The translations under genes and the position numbers were made by a program. From positions 276,355 to 308,354 of the forward strand of contig DLCN01000003.1 in NCBI GenBank assembly GCA_002480645.1: DNA of 32,000 bases. The letters are read 5' to 3'. Source of the DNA: Balneolaceae bacterium UBA7797 (GTDB taxonomy: Bacteria; Bacteroidota; Rhodothermia; Balneolales; Balneolaceae). Below the pieces are notes generated by a model. It was not told the DNA's origin. It saw only the letters and a program-made list of their open reading frames with translations, and did no database searches. Below, piece after piece: positions 5,880 through 14,102 of the stretch. How positions within the stretch are numbered: the stretch's first letter is position 1; each line of letters begins with the position of its first letter.

Positions 5880-5909
5880 TTGTTTTAGAATAACCGTCAA
5901 AATTTTTAA

Positions 5910-5936
5910 AGGCTCATCTTGGATGGGCCTTTTTTG
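5910..5936. terminator. Bidirectional rho-independent terminator between the convergent pdh operon and the minus-strand cluster
   Basis: A 9-bp stem, AGGCTCATC (5910-5918) / GATGGGCCT (5922-5930, one G-U pair), encloses a 3-nt loop. It is followed by T6 on the + strand and preceded by an A/T-rich stretch (AATTTTTAAA), which reads as a partial U-tract on the - strand. It sits 31 nt after the E2 stop. Confidence 0.7.
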
Positions 5937-6009: not shown

Positions 6010-7815
6010 TTATGGATATTCTAAAAGGTAGATGACCGGCTCAGAACCACGATCAGCTAAACGACGGGCTAAAGCGTTTGCATCTCTGAAGGAGTTAAAG
6101 ATCTCAGATACCTGTACATAATAAAGCCCATTTTCCATCCCGAATACTCGGGTATCGATATTTAGGGCTTCTTTTAATGATTGTACGGCAGCTTCTGCGA
6201 GCTGTCGGTTCTCAAATACATTAATTTGTATCTGATATCTGGCCCGGTAATTTCTGAAATCTTCCGTATTTGGCTTGAGTTCGAGATTTCTGGTTAATCC
6301 CTTTTCCCTGATATTGTTAAGAACAGATAATGCATGATCCTGGCGGGTGTATGGTCCATTCACCACAAGAAAACGGTTTTCAGATTTTACGATATAGGAT
6401 TCGATCCCATAATCTCCAAGAATGGTAAATGAATAATCAATGGCATTTTGCTCTGAAGAGAATGAACCAAATTGGATTAGGTAAGTTAGGGTCTCTATTC
6501 TGTTACTTCCTGCATCACATCGGTGAACAAGATTCAGGTTTAACTCAGGCATCTCACTCTTAACAGTTCTGTAATCTTCAATTGCTTTGGTAAAGTTTTG
6601 ATCACCGGAAGAACGAATGGTATACAGGTCGTTATTAAAACCAATATTAAGTGCTACCCCGGTTCTTTCCGTTACTGAGTTTGAGACATCAAAAGCACTG
6701 TTTAAAGATCTGAAGCTGCCAACCTGAATTGCATAACTACAATTATCCCTGGAACCAAGTGAGAAAACAGCATTTGATGATACCGGTTCCGGATCAGGGG
6801 TTTCAGGCTGTTCAGTTACCTTTTCCGGTTGATCTGCAGCTAATGGTTCGTCAGCTTCAGCAATTTCTTCGTCCTCATCAGGAGTCTGTATGACCTCTTC
6901 TTCTGTATCAACCGTTGTAGCATTATTATTGCTAGCTGATGGGGGCTGAACGGGCTCCGGTAATGGTTTGATTGCCGGAATCGCATCAGATATAAACGTT
7001 AGAGAATCGCTAACAGTCAGGAATTGATTGGTCAGTGAATCTATGTTTGCATTTTGTAGAGAATCAGACTCTAACGAATCTGCCTCAGCAAGTAATTCCT
7101 CTTCCGGCTCAGGTTTTTCTTCCATAGAATAATACAAACGAAGCACTACTCTTCTGTTCATCTCCCTCGGAGCCTCAACCCGTTCGCCATTCTCATCGGT
7201 GATATATCTTGGTCGTGAATCCGCGTAACCTGAAGCCTTCAGGCGAGATTTATCAATGCCTTCTGAAATGAAATACTTGACCACATCTGCTGCCCGTGCT
7301 GTAGATAATTCCCAGTTAGATGGATAAATACGAGATGAGATCGGCACATCATCCGTATGGCCTTCAACATCAATATTATAATCGTCGTACTCATTTTTCC
7401 GGATGGCGACAACGATCTTATTCAAAATATCTTTAGCTGATGAAAGAAGGTTTGCACTTCCCGAATTAAAGAAAGAGTCACTGCTGAATCTGATCTTAAT
7501 ATCATTAAGATCACGGTTGATCTCGATCTTACCTGCCTCGATCTCGTCTACAAGGTAGATCTCCAGTTGACGCTGAACTTCTTCGATCGGGGTGGTTATA
7601 TACTCGGTTTCTATCACCGAGGAGTCGTATAAATTTGAGACGGAAAGGGGATCTTGTTTTGTGATCTGAGAGACGGAAAGTAATACGATCAAAAAACCAA
7701 GGATCACCGTAATGATATCGAGATAACTGATCTGCCAGCTATCCTCATCTTCTCCCTCAAAATGACTGTTGGGGAAGAGTGAATTTCTATTTCTATTGGA
7801 TGGTCCCGGACTCAA
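6010..7815 (-). CDS. MotB-like stator anchor: N-terminal MotB TM/plug, OmpA-like peptidoglycan-binding domain, acidic Pro-rich linker and three C-terminal SPOR repeats
   Basis: 601 aa. The TM segment WQISYLDIITVILGFLIVLL carries the single conserved Asp of MotB-type proteins (compare E. coli YADFMTAMMAFF). The OmpA_C-like core is IDVEGHTDDVPISSRIYPSNWELSTARAADVVKYF...GYADSRP...NRRVVLRL (about 7132-7503). Three SPOR-like units lie at about 6013-6741 (YAIQVGSFRS..., YLIQFGSFSS...LVVNGPYT, YQIQINVFEN...YYVQVSEIF). The start codon is TTG at 7815, 18 nt after the motA-like stop; no in-frame ATG precedes the TM helix. Confidence 0.8.
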   Translation of the reverse strand: MSPGPSNRNRNSLFPNSHFEGEDEDSWQISYLDIITVILGFLIVLLSVSQITKQDPLSVSNLYDSSVIETEYITTPIEEVQRQLEIYLVDEIEAGKIEINRDLNDIKIRFSSDSFFNSGSANLLSSAKDILNKIVVAIRKNEYDDYNIDVEGHTDDVPISSRIYPSNWELSTARAADVVKYFISEGIDKSRLKASGYADSRPRYITDENGERVEAPREMNRRVVLRLYYSMEEKPEPEEELLAEADSLESDSLQNANIDSLTNQFLTVSDSLTFISDAIPAIKPLPEPVQPPSASNNNATTVDTEEEVIQTPDEDEEIAEADEPLAADQPEKVTEQPETPDPEPVSSNAVFSLGSRDNCSYAIQVGSFRSLNSAFDVSNSVTERTGVALNIGFNNDLYTIRSSGDQNFTKAIEDYRTVKSEMPELNLNLVHRCDAGSNRIETLTYLIQFGSFSSEQNAIDYSFTILGDYGIESYIVKSENRFLVVNGPYTRQDHALSVLNNIREKGLTRNLELKPNTEDFRNYRARYQIQINVFENRQLAEAAVQSLKEALNIDTRVFGMENGLYYVQVSEIFNSFRDANALARRLADRGSEPVIYLLEYP

Positions 7816-7833
7816 AGTGTACGACTTTATACT

Positions 7834-8631
7834 TTATAGTTGTGTCTTATTCCGGCGCATATGGGCCTGCAGTTTATCGTAGATCTGTAATGAGGTTTTT
7901 TGATTTTCGATAAGTAAAACGCCTTCCAGTATCATTTTTTCACGAAAATATTGAAGTGAAGCAATATTATTCATTTTTCGGGCCATAGGAATGAATATGA
8001 AGTTACCAATGATGATCCCATATAAAGTGGTCATAAGCGCAGCTGCCAGTCCTGTAAGCAGAGACTCTACTTCGTTGAACCCTGAAAGCATCACAATAAG
8101 GCCAAAAAGTGTACCCAGCATTCCAAATACAGGGGCAGATTTACCCATGCTCATTATGATCTGATTGATCTGCAATTGTTTAGAGAAATTCTCCTCAATA
8201 TTTATCTCTCCCAATTCCCGGAGTTCCTCTGAACTATAGTTGGTATCCATCACAGAAAACAAATAGCCTTCGAAGGTTTCCATATAATCTTCACTTAATT
8301 GAGCAACCGCTTGTACCCGGTCTTCTTTGATCATTTTCTGCCATTCTAAGATACGTTGAATATCATCCTCTAAAAGGTCATCAGAGATGGTGCTGTGAGA
8401 GAATAAACGCAGGCTTTCCCGATAGGCTCTCAGTACATTTCTAAATGGGTAACTGATAAAGATACTGGCAGAGACACCACCGATCACAATAGCCAAACTT
8501 GGTAGATTCAGATATTCCAGTGTGGTTGGTATCAGCTCATATTGGGTAAAACCCATTACTAATAATGATCCCCACAGTAAAACCATCATGGAGATCAAAA
8601 AGCTGAGTATGTTTAAGATAGAAGTACGCAT
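7834..8631 (-). CDS. MotA/TolQ/ExbB-family proton-channel protein (MotA-like stator subunit)
   Basis: 265 aa. Two N-terminal TM helices are followed by a charged cytoplasmic loop of about 100 aa. The MotA_ExbB core is MGKSAPVFGMLGTLFGLIVML...LAAALMTTLYGIIIGNFIFIPMARKM, with the conserved Pro residues in TM3 and TM4. It lies immediately upstream of the MotB-like gene. Confidence 0.85.
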   Translation of the reverse strand: MRTSILNILSFLISMMVLLWGSLLVMGFTQYELIPTTLEYLNLPSLAIVIGGVSASIFISYPFRNVLRAYRESLRLFSHSTISDDLLEDDIQRILEWQKMIKEDRVQAVAQLSEDYMETFEGYLFSVMDTNYSSEELRELGEINIEENFSKQLQINQIIMSMGKSAPVFGMLGTLFGLIVMLSGFNEVESLLTGLAAALMTTLYGIIIGNFIFIPMARKMNNIASLQYFREKMILEGVLLIENQKTSLQIYDKLQAHMRRNKTQL

Positions 8632-8643
8632 AAGTGGTAATTC

Positions 8644-9147
8644 TTAAAAATTTTTCCTGAATTTGTCATCAAGCAAACCTTGATTCTGTAGCTCTCTGAG
8701 CACATAGTTTGAGTAGGAGAGCGGTAGATTTTCGTCCAGCTCTAAGGCTTTTCTCCAATCCCGTACAAAATTATCAACCGAACCTAATCCCAGAAAGATA
8801 CTACCTCTAAGAGCAAGAATATCTGCATTTTCTTTAAAACCGTACGCCTTGTTTATATAGTAAAGGGCCTGTTCATAATCTCCGTTATAATATCTCTGTT
8901 GAGCCAGGATATAGAATGTTGTAAGTCCGTTAGCCCTGGCCTGATATTCATTGTACAGATCGATCTTATATTGTTTTTTGATCTCGTTTCTTAATGAATC
9001 AGCTACCGAAGACCGATCACTGTCTTCGTTATCCTGTGTATCCTCAGGATCAGTAAAACTCTCAGCAGAGACATCATCCATCGCTTTTTCACTACTTTTA
9101 CACGAAAAAAGCAGGGCGTAGGCAGGAATCATCATGATCACACCCAA
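8644..9147 (-). CDS. Putative TPR-repeat lipoprotein
   Basis: 167 aa. The N-terminus is hydrophobic and ends in a lipobox-like LLFSC, followed by an acidic stretch. TPR-like helices follow (YNGDYEQALYYINKAYGFKENADILALRGSIFLGLGSVDNFVRDWRKALELD). The ORF-track start is TTG at 9147; alternative ATGs at 9135 and 9132 are in frame, so the start is uncertain. Confidence 0.5.
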   Translation of the reverse strand: MGVIMMIPAYALLFSCKSSEKAMDDVSAESFTDPEDTQDNEDSDRSSVADSLRNEIKKQYKIDLYNEYQARANGLTTFYILAQQRYYNGDYEQALYYINKAYGFKENADILALRGSIFLGLGSVDNFVRDWRKALELDENLPLSYSNYVLRELQNQGLLDDKFRKNF

Positions 9148-9181: not shown

Positions 9182-11062
9182 TCAGTTTTCCTCTTTTACC
9201 AGTTCGCCTTTTTTATGAAGCTCCGCGTAATAACGGATAGACTTCATTAACATTGATTTGGCCGGATTGGTTGCTTTAATATCTTTGATCGGATTCTCCT
9301 GTAATTCCAACCGGATCAGGCGTTGCTCTCTGGAAGGTCGTACAGATAATATCCGGTCAAGGATTTTAGGTTCCAAACCTGCAACAGCTTCCAGTATAGT
9401 GCCTGTATTCAGTTCATTGGCAGCATGCTTAATGATCTCAATATCAAGATCCGGAATCTGTTCTATTGTGATGAATTGTTCTTTTAATGCTTCCGCAACC
9501 ACAGAGCCCGTAGCCTGGAGTTGCTCAATATATTGCCGCTGTTGGGTAACAGGAAGTTTTTCAAGAACCGGAAGGATGTTTTCGGTTCCTTTTCGTTCTT
9601 CTTTTTCCAGCTCGATCAATTCCATGGTTTTATCGAATAGCGAATTTGATATAACCCGATGCTGTTTATAGGTAAGATTATGTAGCGTAGCCATTTTTAA
9701 CATGATGTCAGCTACTCTGTCTCTGTCTAATTGATCCAGTATGGAAGCAGCCCGATATTCATCCAGATAATCAATGATCAGAGCTGCAGTTTGGGTATTC
9801 TCTGTTTTGAGCAATCTGAGAATAACTTTCTCAGATACGTGATCCAGAAAACGGAATAAATTAAGCTGGGAGTGTTTCTGCCTGTTTTCTGATTCACCTT
9901 TGTTACCACCCAGTAATTCGTTGAATTCTGTAGCTATTTGTTTTCGTTCTTCCGTACTGAGAGGGGGTAAGTTATCCAGAGCATCACTGATCGCCTGATA
10001 ATAATCCGGTCGTATATCTTTTTTCAGAGAACGAATAAGGTGTCGATCTACTGACGCAATGACCTGAGCGGCACGCCGGGCTCCCTGGTCCGCATGTTCA
10101 TCCATCCAGTATTCAAACAACAGAGAAATATCCTGTGGCTTATTGAAGAAATTCTGAATCAGAAGATCTACTTCATTCGCTTTATCCGGCTCTATAGTTT
10201 TCAGGATCACTGAATTTGAGGTCTGATCGTTTTTAACTTTTCCTTCAACAGTAAGATCACTTCTTAGATTGCTGCGCTGGGACCGGATTGTAGATTGATC
10301 GGTGGAAGATTTTCGGGTAAAGATGCGAGATATAACCAGAGCGATCAGAAACAATACAAAAAGAACCGCCAGAGGGATGTAATCATTAATGCTTTCAGCA
10401 AAAGTTTTTTCTACTTCGGGCTGATTATTCTGTTGAGGAAGTTGCGGGAGTTCCTGAGCCATATCATCCTGAAAATCAGGCATATTTAAGCGCCGAATGT
10501 TGATCACATCTCCACGATTATCATCTGTTTTAGCAGCGATACCTGTGATCAATCTCATAAATTCCAGTTCACGGGTGGTAAGAGATGAATCAGCATAAAT
10601 ATTAATTACCAGGCTATTCAGTTTAAGAGTACGAATGGTATTCTGATTCAGGATCTTTTCCGGATTATTCTCCACATTTTCATCCGGAAGAAGATTCTCT
10701 TCGGGTAAAAAAGGGAGTCCCGGCATGGTAATATTATTAGGTCGCTGCCTTATGACCTGATTTTGAGTAACGGTGAAGGTTTCGTCGACCATCTCGGCAC
10801 TGATATCAACATCTACAAAAAATGAGCGGGGGTCGAAATAATTGGAAAGTATCTGTAAGACCTGTGCATCGTAACGTTGTTCAAGGGTTGCAACTCTGAG
10901 TTCAAAAGAATCGGAAGTGGTTACATTTTCCCCGGTTTGGGCATAACTATTACCTCCAGCAAAAAGAATGATGAGAGTAAGAGCGAAAACCCAAAGTAAA
11001 TTACTGCTTAAGCCAAATCGTAAGTGCTTAAAATAGATGATTTTGCAATTATAGGTCGACAT
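9182..11062 (-). CDS. Membrane-anchored FliG-like protein: signal/TM, periplasmic domain of about 185 aa, one TM helix, then complete FliG N/M/C-like region
   Basis: 626 aa. The N-terminal h-region is LLWVFALTLIILFAGGNSYA-Q. The periplasmic segment is aa 42-227 (10382-10939) and the TM helix is YIPLAVLFVLFLIALVISRIF (10322-10381). Cytoplasmic aa 310-626 (9185-10135) align by eye with E. coli FliG recalled from memory. N domain: GARRAAQVIASVDRHLIRSL...LSTEERKQIATEF vs [20 protein letters not shown]...ISNKQLTDVLAEF. M domain: FRFLDHVSEKVILRLLKTENTQTAALIIDYLDEYRAASILDQLDRDRVADIMLKMATL vs [55 protein letters not shown]. C domain: SVRPSREQRLIRLELQENPIKDIKATNPAKSMLMKSIRYYAELHKKGELV vs NMSQRAADILRDDLANRGPVRLSQVENEQKAILLIVRRLAETGEMV. 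Confidence 0.7.
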   Translation of the reverse strand: MSTYNCKIIYFKHLRFGLSSNLLWVFALTLIILFAGGNSYAQTGENVTTSDSFELRVATLEQRYDAQVLQILSNYFDPRSFFVDVDISAEMVDETFTVTQNQVIRQRPNNITMPGLPFLPEENLLPDENVENNPEKILNQNTIRTLKLNSLVINIYADSSLTTRELEFMRLITGIAAKTDDNRGDVINIRRLNMPDFQDDMAQELPQLPQQNNQPEVEKTFAESINDYIPLAVLFVLFLIALVISRIFTRKSSTDQSTIRSQRSNLRSDLTVEGKVKNDQTSNSVILKTIEPDKANEVDLLIQNFFNKPQDISLLFEYWMDEHADQGARRAAQVIASVDRHLIRSLKKDIRPDYYQAISDALDNLPPLSTEERKQIATEFNELLGGNKGESENRQKHSQLNLFRFLDHVSEKVILRLLKTENTQTAALIIDYLDEYRAASILDQLDRDRVADIMLKMATLHNLTYKQHRVISNSLFDKTMELIELEKEERKGTENILPVLEKLPVTQQRQYIEQLQATGSVVAEALKEQFITIEQIPDLDIEIIKHAANELNTGTILEAVAGLEPKILDRILSVRPSREQRLIRLELQENPIKDIKATNPAKSMLMKSIRYYAELHKKGELVKEEN

Positions 11063-11102: not shown

Positions 11103-14102
11103 TTATTCTAATGATCCGCCTATATTTATGATCTGATCCAGAGCTTCCATTTCAGGAATATAAATATCCGGATTAAATCTTACAGCCATATTCCAATTCT
11201 CTCTGGCGAGCTCTTTCTCGCCTTTCAAATAGTGGAGGCTACCCTTTAGAGCGTATCCTTGTGCCGTCTTGAAAATGTCCAGCGATTCGTTAACCAGATC
11301 CATCGCCTGTTCAATTCTTTTTCTGTAGAATGCATTCTGTGCCATAATGATCAAACGTAACGAACGGTCCAGATCATTAAGTAAAGACTCTCTGTATGCG
11401 ACCAATTCTCTGTCTGTTTCTAAACTTGCCATGATCGTTTGAAGCGTATCATTCAGCGCTTCCTGCTCTTCATCATAATCTTTTGGAACGATCAGAAAGT
11501 GTAAGCCTTCTATAAAGTCACCTTCAGATTTTGCCTCCACTTCAATATCCAGTTTTTCGGGGATGGTTCTGGAACCAAGAAGATTCAGCTGACTTTGATC
11601 GACGGTAAGTTCATATTTACCCGGAGGGAGTTCATAATCGTAAAAAGTACCATCCGTAAACGTTCTGATGTCTTTTCTGAAGTCATTTTCAGTACCAACG
11701 ATATGGATATTCAATCCTCCCTGAGGCTGGGTATGACCCTCTTCGTATAACCGCTCTACATTACCTTCAATAACGCCCGATAAATAAAAGGGGATATCGA
11801 TCTTCTTAAAGCTGTTCGGGTCGGTTACAAGCGAGAATTTTTCCAGTTCCGGAACCAGCATCGGATTATTCAGCGAAGCCTTCATCATTTCCATATTGTA
11901 CCGGTAATATGACTGCATCTGCGTGTAATAAAGTACTCCGTTCTTATAGATGGGGAAAGAGCCGGACCTTCCGATCCTCATCTTACCTTCTGGTATCAGG
12001 TTATCTTCTTCTTTATCGTACGTATGATTGTTATTGTTATCTACAAACATACGAATCGCAGTTCCTGATTTACCGACCTGATTTCTGCTCGTGATAATGA
12101 AATTCTTATAGTTACTGTCGTAACCCACCGATCCGCGGACATTTTGTGTGGCCGTATAACTTGTTGAATTGGTGGTAAAGGTGGTGGTAGTTCTTGCTTT
12201 ATTGAATTCAAAAATAAAGCCGATTCTGAAATTTGTATTCTGTGTAATGAAATTCTGCCCCAAAGAAACCTGAATTCGGCCGGTTTTCATAACACTTTTC
12301 GAGATCATCATTTCCATGGATTCAGATTGTTTCAAATACGGTCGGTATCTGTAAGTACCTCTGAAAAATGTCCCGATAAGGAAATCAGGGATCTTTTGTT
12401 CTCTGGTTAAACTATAGGTTACAGAACTGTTAACGGAGGCCGCACGAGTCATCTCCAAAGGGTTGAAGGTATCAATCAGTCTGTCACTGTAGCCCAGTCT
12501 TAAGTTCATTTTCTTAACACGAGTGTTCAGATCCAGTCTGTAGTTTGAAAAATTCTCGTTATCTCTGAAGCGGGTATAGGTAGAAGCCCTCACATTTAAC
12601 GGGAAATTGCCGATCCTGAAAGGATAAAATCCGCTTAAGCTGAGCTGACTACTATTTCCACCTTGATTATACAATCCGGATTGTGCAATAAAGTTTGTGT
12701 AATTAACGCTAAAACTGGAGCTGTTTGCGTATATGGCATTAATTCCGGACCTGAAAAATCCATTTGAGATAGCTTCCATGGTTACAATGTAATTTGTAAG
12801 CAGACGCCCTGATACTTTGGAAGTAATGCTGGGACCGGGATTGGAGACTAACCCGTCAAAATACTCAAATCCGGCTCCGGCTGTCAGCCAGTTTGTAACC
12901 CCCACAGTGGTTTTTCCCTGTACAGTATAATTGCGATCTTCAGATCCTATAAGTGAATTTTTTAGCCTTCCTGCGTTTAAGTGATAGGTGACTTCGCCTT
13001 TAGGATTAAAGTTGAATGGAACCTGTACACGTCTCGATTCCTGAATGATCTGTCCCGTAGGACCGTAAATTCTAAGGTCTAATTGTGAGGATCCATAATA
13101 TAACGGTGCAATAAAACGATATCTCCCCAGATCATCCGCTTTTTGAAAATCGATAAGTGAATTGTTTAAGTACAATTCTACTTCTGATTGTGGAGTCACA
13201 TAACCCTGAACTTCGTATTCATCAAAAAACTGACGGCTTTCAATGGGCTCATTAGTTAAACGCACACCAACATATTGCGAATTCAATGCTCCGTCCAGCG
13301 TATTGTCACCAACAGCTACTTTTGTTATTAGCGGTGTATCTCTGATAATATATCGCCAGCGTAGGTTATTAGTGGCGAAGGTCGAGAATTCCGAATTAAC
13401 TGCTGCAATTGTTGAACCCTGCAGATCCCCACCGGCTAATTGAAGACCAATGTTATTACTCATATTAAAGGTAGTAGAGCTTTGACTATTGATCGCAGAA
13501 ATGGAGTAGTCCATGAAGCCTCCATCAAATGCACTCCATTTCCGGTCAAATTCCAGTGGAAAGAATTCGGTGGTAGTTCGGTAACCACGTTGCATATTCT
13601 CTCTTTTTGCCGTTCTTACCGTTCTTTCGATACGTGGAATAGGAATATTGGTCTCCAGATCTAATGCAAGGTTATTGAAATCAACCGTAAAATTTAGCCC
13701 AAAGATATTTTTAAAAATGTCTGGATGTAAGAAATAGTCCAGCTCTTTGATCAGAACCTCTTCCGGTTTGATCTCTGTAGAGGTACCATCAAATGTAATT
13801 GTATAATTTTCAAGATCGATTCGATACGGAATCTGATCGAGCCCAAAATTTCCCTGGACTACCAGACCATTTACATTGGCTTCGAAATCGAGCGTAGAAA
13901 AAAGACCGTTAACAGGCAGGTAGAAAACATCGTCAAGGTAGTAAGAAGTGACGATGCTGTTAATTACACCACGGTGTCTGAATGCAAGATATACCTCGAA
14001 ACTATCATCCTCGTCTACCTGAGCAACACTGTTAACAGGAAACAGTAATCCAAGTAGCAGAGAAAGAATTAAATAACGGGCAAAATTGCATCTTACATTC
14101 AC
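11103..14102 (-). CDS. Outer-membrane fimbrial usher-like protein with a C-terminal CarboxypepD_reg-like domain and TPR-like tail
   Basis: 999 aa with signal peptide LILSLLLGLLFPVNSVAQ. The segment VQGYVTPQSEVELYLNNSLIDFQKADDLGRYRFIAPLYYGSSQLDLRIYGPTGQIIQESRRVQVPFNFNPKGEVTYHLNAGRL (about 12960-13215) follows the usher pattern seen in PapC/FimD (G.a.p.a.V.v.qNG..i....V.pGpF.i.dl....sGdL.v.v.e.dG......v.vp....l..G...Y.l..Gr). A long region of alternating beta-strand-like sequence follows. The C-terminal part has GVIEGNV...TFTDGTFYDYELPPGKYELTV and a TPR-like end (AQGYALKGSLHYLKGEKELARENWNMAVRFNPD). The start is GTG at 14102 and overlaps the chaperone stop (GTGA). Confidence 0.65.
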   Translation of the reverse strand: MNVRCNFARYLILSLLLGLLFPVNSVAQVDEDDSFEVYLAFRHRGVINSIVTSYYLDDVFYLPVNGLFSTLDFEANVNGLVVQGNFGLDQIPYRIDLENYTITFDGTSTEIKPEEVLIKELDYFLHPDIFKNIFGLNFTVDFNNLALDLETNIPIPRIERTVRTAKRENMQRGYRTTTEFFPLEFDRKWSAFDGGFMDYSISAINSQSSTTFNMSNNIGLQLAGGDLQGSTIAAVNSEFSTFATNNLRWRYIIRDTPLITKVAVGDNTLDGALNSQYVGVRLTNEPIESRQFFDEYEVQGYVTPQSEVELYLNNSLIDFQKADDLGRYRFIAPLYYGSSQLDLRIYGPTGQIIQESRRVQVPFNFNPKGEVTYHLNAGRLKNSLIGSEDRNYTVQGKTTVGVTNWLTAGAGFEYFDGLVSNPGPSITSKVSGRLLTNYIVTMEAISNGFFRSGINAIYANSSSFSVNYTNFIAQSGLYNQGGNSSQLSLSGFYPFRIGNFPLNVRASTYTRFRDNENFSNYRLDLNTRVKKMNLRLGYSDRLIDTFNPLEMTRAASVNSSVTYSLTREQKIPDFLIGTFFRGTYRYRPYLKQSESMEMMISKSVMKTGRIQVSLGQNFITQNTNFRIGFIFEFNKARTTTTFTTNSTSYTATQNVRGSVGYDSNYKNFIITSRNQVGKSGTAIRMFVDNNNNHTYDKEEDNLIPEGKMRIGRSGSFPIYKNGVLYYTQMQSYYRYNMEMMKASLNNPMLVPELEKFSLVTDPNSFKKIDIPFYLSGVIEGNVERLYEEGHTQPQGGLNIHIVGTENDFRKDIRTFTDGTFYDYELPPGKYELTVDQSQLNLLGSRTIPEKLDIEVEAKSEGDFIEGLHFLIVPKDYDEEQEALNDTLQTIMASLETDRELVAYRESLLNDLDRSLRLIIMAQNAFYRKRIEQAMDLVNESLDIFKTAQGYALKGSLHYLKGEKELARENWNMAVRFNPDIYIPEMEALDQIINIGGSLE

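Follow-up and report, generated by a model that had tools for sequence, protein, structure and literature searches.

Stators of the flagellar type are generally regarded as a mark of the flagellum. They have been set apart structurally from their non-flagellar relatives, and four transmembrane helices, a cytoplasmic domain of at least four helices and a continuous third transmembrane helix (TM3) define the flagellar-type (FIT, TGI4) units (PMC12505986). Here we consider a stator-like gene pair in a 32,000-nucleotide stretch of Balneolaceae bacterium UBA7797 (contig DLCN01000003.1, positions 276,355 to 308,354; hereafter the window, whose own numbering is used throughout). The motA-like gene (7834..8631, 265 aa) and the motB-like gene (6010..7815, 601 aa) are encoded on the reverse strand, as are the other genes and features of their operon given below. 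The closest described systems are PomAB, MotPS and MotAB, which are the best sequence and fold matches of the pair and share with it the adjacent A and B genes, the MotA fold, the prolines of TM3 and TM4, and a MotB with a single transmembrane helix, a channel aspartate and an OmpA-like wall-binding domain. In spite of this likeness the pair is a non-flagellar stator, serving, within a chaperone-usher fibre operon, a protein that resembles FliG. We think it probable that it is a PomAB/MotPS-like stator working outside the flagellum, in a rotor-stator module that ends this Balneolaceae operon, and that a tail of three SPOR domains on its MotB is the wall anchor of the machine.

The gene neighbourhood and its distribution proved informative. 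In all ten motor-bearing operons compared, which are that of the window and nine fetched loci from at least seven genera, the genes follow the same order: a giant type IX secretion system (T9SS) protein, pilin-like genes, DUF4402 pilins, a chaperone, an usher, the FliG-like gene, a TPR lipoprotein, MotA and MotB-SPOR. The giant T9SS protein at the operon head is a giant adhesin, and the stator pair closes the operon. In the window the usher-like gene (form A) occupies 11103..14102 and is followed by the gene for the FliG-like protein (9182..11062), the presumed rotor partner, which is membrane-anchored and matches Pfam FliG_N, FliG_M and FliG_C. The TPR lipoprotein gene (8644..9147, with weak TPR matches) lies between it and motA, a position kept in all motor-bearing loci examined. 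On another contig the same genome has a flagellar locus with fliF, fliG, flhA, a MotA of 292 aa and an ordinary MotB of 251 aa that lacks SPOR. Across the 151 Balneolaceae genomes of our family survey the long MotB is present in 41, and no FlhA match was found in 25 of these 41, all but two of which are at least 97% complete; among these 25 are every one of the 11 genomes of genus g11 and each of the 11 long-MotB genomes of genus g34. It is because of these carriers without FlhA, the separate flagellar motAB and the pair's own FliG-like protein within the fibre operon that we read the stator as non-flagellar. A paralogous orphan module was also seen in other Balneolaceae genomes (L024:5603-10661, L025 and L026). 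It comprises a FliG-like membrane protein of 608 aa, a 369-aa protein, a TPR protein, a MotA (42-45% identical) and a 230-aa MotB without SPOR, with no usher adjoining. It occurs also in genomes without an FlhA match, and the window's own genome does not have it.

Both open reading frames are present, and the motifs singled out in the first-pass annotation of the sequence (APVFGMLGT and FIFIPMA in MotA, SYLDIIT in MotB) stand in their translations. That annotation assigned MotA a layout of four transmembrane helices with prolines in TM3 and TM4, and the AlphaFold model (predicted local distance difference test, pLDDT, 87.9) bears this out. Helices are modelled at residues 5-26 and 43-60, at 63-73, 84-103, 105-115 and 120-128, and at 134-183 and 188-242, so that four short cytoplasmic helices would lie between TM2 and an unbroken TM3; the model thus matches the flagellar-type layout. 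MotA scores 61 bits against Pfam MotA_ExbB, and its best NCBIfam matches are MotP, MotA and PomA, all under the curated cut-offs. A structure-sequence search returned flagellar stator subunits only (Clostridium sporogenes MotA at 8e-23, PomA at 8e-18), and each of the top 23 structures listed by Foldseek is a PomA or a MotA. In the channel region of TM3 and TM4 (residues 160-215; 7987..8154) P167 and P215 are invariant in 36 sequences, the genome's flagellar MotA included, as are G170xxG173xxxG177, T174, T201 and T202 among these relatives. These residues fall in register with PomA P151, G154-G161, T158, T185, T186 and P199. In the putative rotor-contact region D90, W97, K/R99 and K102 are conserved, but they yield no secure Arg/Glu pair.

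The identity of the driving ion deserves comment. It had been proposed that the pair is proton-competent; the hallmarks of an ion-conducting stator are indeed there, but the proton is not established, and MotA shows the three-threonine pattern reported for sodium-driven units. Threonines of the PomA T158/T185/T186 type are reported to be kept in all such units, with alanine at two of the three positions in two proton-driven units (PMC10374538). Because MotA T174, T201 and T202 match these PomA residues, the ion may be sodium rather than the proton. Judged by its sequence hallmarks the pair would work like a MotAB or PomAB unit, yet it would do so without one feature of membership, that of acting on the flagellum.

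The MotB-like protein has an equally recognisable core. The motA stop codon (7834-7836) lies in the motB frame, and 18 nt past it, in the same frame, a TTG (7813..7815) is the sole ATG, GTG or TTG before the conserved N-terminus. The TTG start suspected from the sequence is thus the only usable one, and in 18 orthologous genes (loci L005-L028) the equivalent codon is TTG in 10, GTG in 7 and ATG in a single case. A weak non-ATG start may tune the ratio of MotB to MotA, which would fit the low B:A ratio (2:5) of known stators. A hydrophilic segment of 27 aa precedes the transmembrane helix (residues 28-52, 7660..7734; modelled by AlphaFold at 31-52). The channel aspartate and OmpA_C-like domain noticed in the first-pass annotation hold up well: Asp33 (codon 7717-7719), in WQISYLDIIT, is invariant within a WQxSYLDIIT motif in 34 of 34 orthologues and aligns with the transmembrane channel aspartate of C. 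sporogenes MotB. The domain at residues 77-231 (7123..7587) scores 66.8 bits against Pfam OmpA. Foldseek places this part at target TM-scores of 0.84-0.86 to the TssL anchor 4b62 (the top match), PomB 3wpw and MotS 9ljm, and its binding-site residues D155, N167, R174 and R221 are invariant among the orthologues. MotB_plug reaches 26.8 bits (Pfam cut-off 24); MotB_plug, OmpA and SPOR are all above the Pfam threshold in the one protein, and S58, S60, F63, E71 and T74-P76 are conserved past the helix. NCBIfam ranks MotD, MotB and MotS highest, all below curated cut-offs and with MotD the best, and a structure-sequence search with the N-terminal half returned MotB, MotS and PomB.

Other identities were considered for the pair and rejected. 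It groups with MotB/PomB/MotS and with MotA/PomA, not with ExbBD/TolQR or Pal. An ExbBD or TolQR identity was set aside on the NCBIfam score for ExbB (17 bits) and on Foldseek, where ExbB appears only at E values of 2.7e-3 or higher with a TM-score of 0.47, and TolQ at 0.37-0.40. A B subunit of the ExbD/TolR type does not fit either: MotB has an OmpA domain and no ExbD match, and the ExbBD-TonB set of the genome lies elsewhere. Zorya (ZorAB) was likewise dismissed, as PADLOC gave no ZorA match for MotA and no Zor partner genes; the match of MotB to ZorB is weak (67 bits, against 146 for MotD). A Pal/OmpA-type lipoprotein is at odds with the lack of a lipobox and with the hydrophilic N-terminus followed by a transmembrane helix with D33.

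The feature that distinguishes this MotB is the extra 370 aa of linker and SPOR tail, which begins exactly at the point where the short MotB paralogues end (at about 223-245 aa). Of the best 120 homologues nearly all combine MotB_plug, OmpA and SPOR, and those that have a name belong to Balneolaceae; in the ten motor-bearing loci compared, this architecture stands inside the fibre operon. When 1.84 billion cluster representatives were searched exhaustively, the long form amounted to about 16 clusters only, and the next relatives in the same search are ordinary MotBs of 220-300 aa and a few MotB-TPR fusions. Some of the nearest short MotB relatives (P0261, P0297 and P0275) have MotB_plug, OmpA and a C-terminal TPR repeat region. 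These fusions suggest that stators of this class regularly have TPR proteins as partners. Downstream of motB, in the 130-nt gap that separates it from a convergent pyruvate dehydrogenase E2 gene, a terminator-like hairpin with an 11-bp stem (5908-5932) was noticed, which could end both the E2 and the motB transcripts.

Three SPOR repeats had been reported after the OmpA domain, and AlphaFold, hhalign and Pfam agree in supporting three predicted units behind a disordered acidic linker. The linker (residues 232-356, 6748..7122), recognised earlier by its composition (PEPEEE...), is acidic and proline-rich as described, with 26% Asp/Glu and 12% Pro at a pLDDT of 31-38, although its length is 125 aa rather than the estimated 115 or so. 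Unit 1 spans residues 357-436 (6508..6747), unit 2 residues 441-518 (6262..6495) and unit 3 residues 521-601 (6013..6255). On the whole MotB, Pfam SPOR scores 57.7 bits in two stretches; scanned singly, units 2 and 3 reach 28.5 and 30.6 bits, above the threshold, and NCBIfam RlpA-family matches cover 441-507 and 525-588. Unit 1 is recovered by profile comparison, hhalign of the orthologue alignments giving 95.5% for units 1 and 2, 96.7% for 1 and 3 and 98.8% for 2 and 3. AlphaFold predicts beta-alpha-beta-beta-alpha-beta modules at 359-433, 445-515 and 524-600 (pLDDT 80-95, with 83-94 for unit 1). With phmmer, unit 3 matches the CwlC SPOR domain 1x60 end to end (E 0.0087) and unit 2 weakly matches the FtsN SPOR domain 1uta. 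SPOR folds are absent from the top 50 Foldseek matches of the full-length MotB model, all of which are OmpA-domain structures.

The tail is under purifying selection. Linker length varies from 17 to 157 aa among the 34 orthologues, and the units are of nearly fixed length in every one (80-82, 78-79 and 81-82 aa). The beta1 glutamine is retained at Q364 in 31, Q448 in 34 and Q530 in 31 of the 34, and R401 and the unit 1 pair Cys359 and Cys433 are invariant. Identity among orthologous tails is 27-30%. In the three closest pairs approximate dN/dS (the ratio of nonsynonymous to synonymous substitution) lies at 0.01-0.02 in the N-terminal half, at 0.04-0.05 in the SPOR units and at 0.10-0.18 in the linker. 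These are rough values, as synonymous sites are near saturation even there; most pairs are saturated, and only these three were usable. In RlpA the beta1 glutamine contacts glycan, and it is required for septal localisation of FtsN and DamX (PMC6895207). Units 1 and 2 of the window MotB have a Q-x-G-S-F pattern, the serine of which is equivalent to FtsN S254, a residue that also matters for septal localisation; the Ser/Ala position after the glutamine varies among orthologues. By analogy with these proteins the three domains most likely bind glycan strands stripped of peptides, and a MotB dimer would present six of them. A further SPOR protein was noticed in the genome of the window (contig C25, L001:3912-7691): a 604-aa protein, HU-like in its N-terminal domain and ending in a SPOR domain, is encoded immediately upstream of an ExbB-ExbD-TonB set, which is another pairing of SPOR with a motor of the MotA/ExbB family.

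A family search with the usher of the window as query clarified our view of the tail. A short usher of about 1000 aa, matched to its end, is present in 41 genomes, and a long usher in 51; the latter has an open frame of 1077-1567 aa, some 170-570 aa longer than the short form, and is matched only to about residue 880. All 41 long-MotB genomes have the short usher (in one the match is cut by a contig end), and the long MotB was found in none of the 51 long-usher genomes. The long-usher extension is made up of three SPOR units preceded by an acidic or proline-rich linker, which measures about 10-450 aa, and the extension shares with the MotB tail the unit 1 cysteine pair and a PVIxLxE-like C-terminal end. 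Pfam SPOR scores 32-72 bits in each of the eight extensions scanned and nine more were matched by sequence, so that all 17 checked have a linker and three SPOR units. No FliG-like, TPR, MotA or MotB gene lies downstream of the 12 long ushers that were fetched. Tail placement on usher and on MotB is mutually exclusive. The usher of the window has no SPOR; its TPR-like end (11106-11495) occupies the site of the SPOR tail in motor-less ushers. In one genome (G070) the usher-SPOR operon adjoins the gene for pyruvate dehydrogenase E2, which in the window is the neighbour of motB. Since the tail is on the usher wherever motor genes are missing, it belongs to the whole fibre machine and not to the stator as such. 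The earlier view of it as a stator feature therefore stands only in so far as the tail is on MotB, and is too narrow where the same tail is carried by the usher of motor-less operons.

Several related sequences were also recorded. Over its C-terminal 120 aa or so the window usher is similar to the operon's own TPR lipoprotein (25-30% identity in tblastn cross-hits). In genome G105, whose fibre operon is of the usher-SPOR form, an 81-aa MotB-like fragment with four stop codons (C1:599117-599362) is probably a decayed copy of a short paralogue. An 8.6 kb contig of G128 has a triple-SPOR tail match at 21% identity (L040:6810-7649); the open frame containing it has about 410 aa, and no MotB or usher part was detected upstream. 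Outside the family, 253 other Bacteroidota genomes gave only one weak single-SPOR match to the tail.

The tree of usher bodies groups largely by genus with long and short forms interleaved, needs at least six changes between them and rejects the motor operons as a single group (approximately unbiased test, p 1.6e-109). In the tail tree the MotB tails as one group are not rejected (p 0.43); of the 12 usher tails, 10 form a cluster at 85/94 support. The motor-gene tree is poorly resolved. From the conflict between the trees of usher bodies and tails it follows that the front half of the operon and the motor-plus-tail end recombined repeatedly.

These findings lead to a picture in which the rotor-stator module consists of the membrane-anchored FliG-like protein, the TPR lipoprotein, MotA and MotB. 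If the solved MotA5B2 and PomA5B2 units are a guide, a MotA5MotB2 complex would pass ions by way of MotB Asp33 and MotA T174, T201, T202, P167 and P215, and the MotA ring would turn against the C-domain of the FliG-like protein. The OmpA-like domain would fix MotB to peptidoglycan and the flexible acidic linker would carry three further wall binders. In a motor-less operon the usher bears the tail; in a motorised one MotB bears it and the usher has a TPR-like end. The wall anchor would thus ride on whichever component must stay fixed, and might possibly also serve as a placement signal of the machine. It is because the usher carries the same tail when the motor is absent that we take the tail as the anchor of the whole fibre machine.

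A number of points weigh against this picture. The plug segment is divergent: MotB_plug matches profile positions 12-45 only, and the putative plug helix at 60-69 is modelled at low confidence (pLDDT 42-46). Equivalents of E. coli R90 and E98, the canonical Arg/Glu pair facing FliG, differ between two alignments of MotA, as the region aligns poorly. SPOR unit 1 alone is below the Pfam threshold (13.1 bits, E 0.12). On the three trees the tail may have been first on either protein, usher or MotB. Finally, a third, divergent operon form, in genus g5 (L042:1-5560 and L043:1-4924), has the motor genes but lacks SPOR throughout the locus, so that the tail is not essential to a motorised operon. Its usher ends in a TPR-like part and its FliG-like protein, of about 640 aa, is divergent; it further has a protein of 163-175 aa, a MotA (35%) and a short MotB of 223-232 aa, with SPOR on neither usher nor MotB.

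Although we suggest that the tail anchors the machine, its main role could instead be placement, with SPOR domains binding denuded glycans of the septum so that division sites receive the machine and the new poles inherit it. This idea, which widens to the whole machine what the first-pass annotation had supposed for the stator, is a real though lesser possibility, and the two roles can coexist. It draws on the beta1 glutamine being kept in all three units (in at least 31 of 34), on the Q-x-G-S-F of units 1 and 2 with its counterpart in FtsN, and on the precedent of PilQ, in which three AMIN domains bring the pilus machine to the wall of septum and poles (PMC10653833, PMC5285504). With the OmpA-like domain already a general wall anchor, a second module specific for a type of glycan could add positional information. 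Yet orthologues differ at the Ser/Ala position after the glutamine, a stator dimer with six SPOR domains would also simply gain in avidity, and g5 operons do without any SPOR. Septal or polar targeting of the machine, by analogy with SPOR domains elsewhere, remains plausible. A bolder extension of the anchor reading, which we regard as rather unlikely, is that the site of the tail marks the part bolted to the wall: the usher of a motorised operon would have swapped its anchor for a TPR-like coupling domain and the stator would have taken the anchor, so that usher and fibre would be freed for turning or pulling by a flagellar-type, possibly sodium-driven, motor. If true, this would be an ion-powered fibre of the chaperone-usher pathway, which is not known to need cellular energy.

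The remaining explanations carry much less weight. That the pair might act like ExbBD-TonB or TolQR-TolA, relaying energy across the periplasm to the usher through TPR proteins with no ring turning, would suit an outer membrane where the usher has no ATP, as well as the TPR proteins and TPR-like usher end of the module and the MotB-TPR fusions among its relatives; it is nevertheless very improbable given the flagellar type of MotA, with its four transmembrane helices, four-helix cytoplasmic domain and continuous TM3, a neighbour with the N, M and C domains of FliG, and an operon without any TonB- or TolA-like protein. An auxiliary flagellar stator in the manner of MotCD, MotPS or LafTU, docking on the genome's own flagellar motor, is hardly credible: the genome has a full flagellar locus and the best NCBIfam matches are MotD and MotP, though below cut-off, but that locus has its own MotA and MotB, the pair is always encoded after its own FliG-like protein within the fibre operon, and we rejected this identity on the carrier genomes without an FlhA match. 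We give as little credence to the notion that the MotB tail is a functionless passenger of recombination between operon variants. The low identity of the tails, the repeated exchange of variants and the tailless g5 form would all agree with it; the nearly fixed length of three units in every orthologue, the invariant cysteine pair, R401 and Q448 with Q364 and Q530 close behind, and a SPOR dN/dS of about 0.04-0.05 in the closest pairs, below that of the linker, would not.

What emerges is a stator with flagellar-type features that is kept in many genomes without an FlhA match and is linked to a machine of the pilus type. The SPOR tail, a discrete module, occurs in nature on either usher or stator, and its site points to the fixed component. 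If placement through SPOR is true, the logic of pre-installation at the septum known for type IV pili would extend to a new machine, and MotB and ushers would join the few proteins beyond cell division that carry SPOR. Our literature searches found no description of a MotB with SPOR, of usher-SPOR fusions or of this motor-fibre operon.

Comparison with described systems helps to place the pair. From PomAB, MotPS and MotAB it differs in not being tied to a flagellum, its partner being a membrane-anchored FliG-like protein in a fibre operon, and in the linker, triple SPOR tail and divergent plug of its MotB. Additional wall attachment of stators is familiar from flagella: MotX and MotY of the Vibrio T-ring, and PflA and PflB of Campylobacter, help to hold stator units by means of TPR/Sel1-type repeats and extra wall-binding domains. 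Those are separate proteins of true flagellar motors, whereas in the present pair MotB itself carries the additional wall-binding module as a fusion. The units of the tail have the RNP-like beta-alpha-beta-beta-alpha-beta fold and beta1 glutamine common to FtsN, DamX, DedD, RlpA and CwlC, and the cysteine pair of unit 1 recalls the disulfide of the FtsN SPOR domain that is linked to wall binding, although the positions differ from those in FtsN. In contrast to the SPOR proteins of division, three units stand in tandem, on a stator or usher rather than on a division protein or wall hydrolase.

Two envelope machines offer further parallels. TssL/DotU of the type VI secretion system is likewise an inner-membrane part of such a machine with a peptidoglycan anchor; 339 proteins of that family have a C-terminal anchor of the OmpA/MotB-like kind, and 14 have SPOR in its stead (PMC3326028). 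There the anchor is OmpA-like or SPOR, whereas the MotB of the window has both in one chain, and the machines are unrelated. PilQ uses three tandem AMIN domains to recognise septal wall and so to place the pilus machine (PMC10653833, PMC5285504). It parallels the usher with three SPOR units as an outer-membrane fibre pore with three tandem wall-binding domains, but the AMIN and SPOR folds are unrelated, PilQ is a secretin and not an usher, and no motor is involved.

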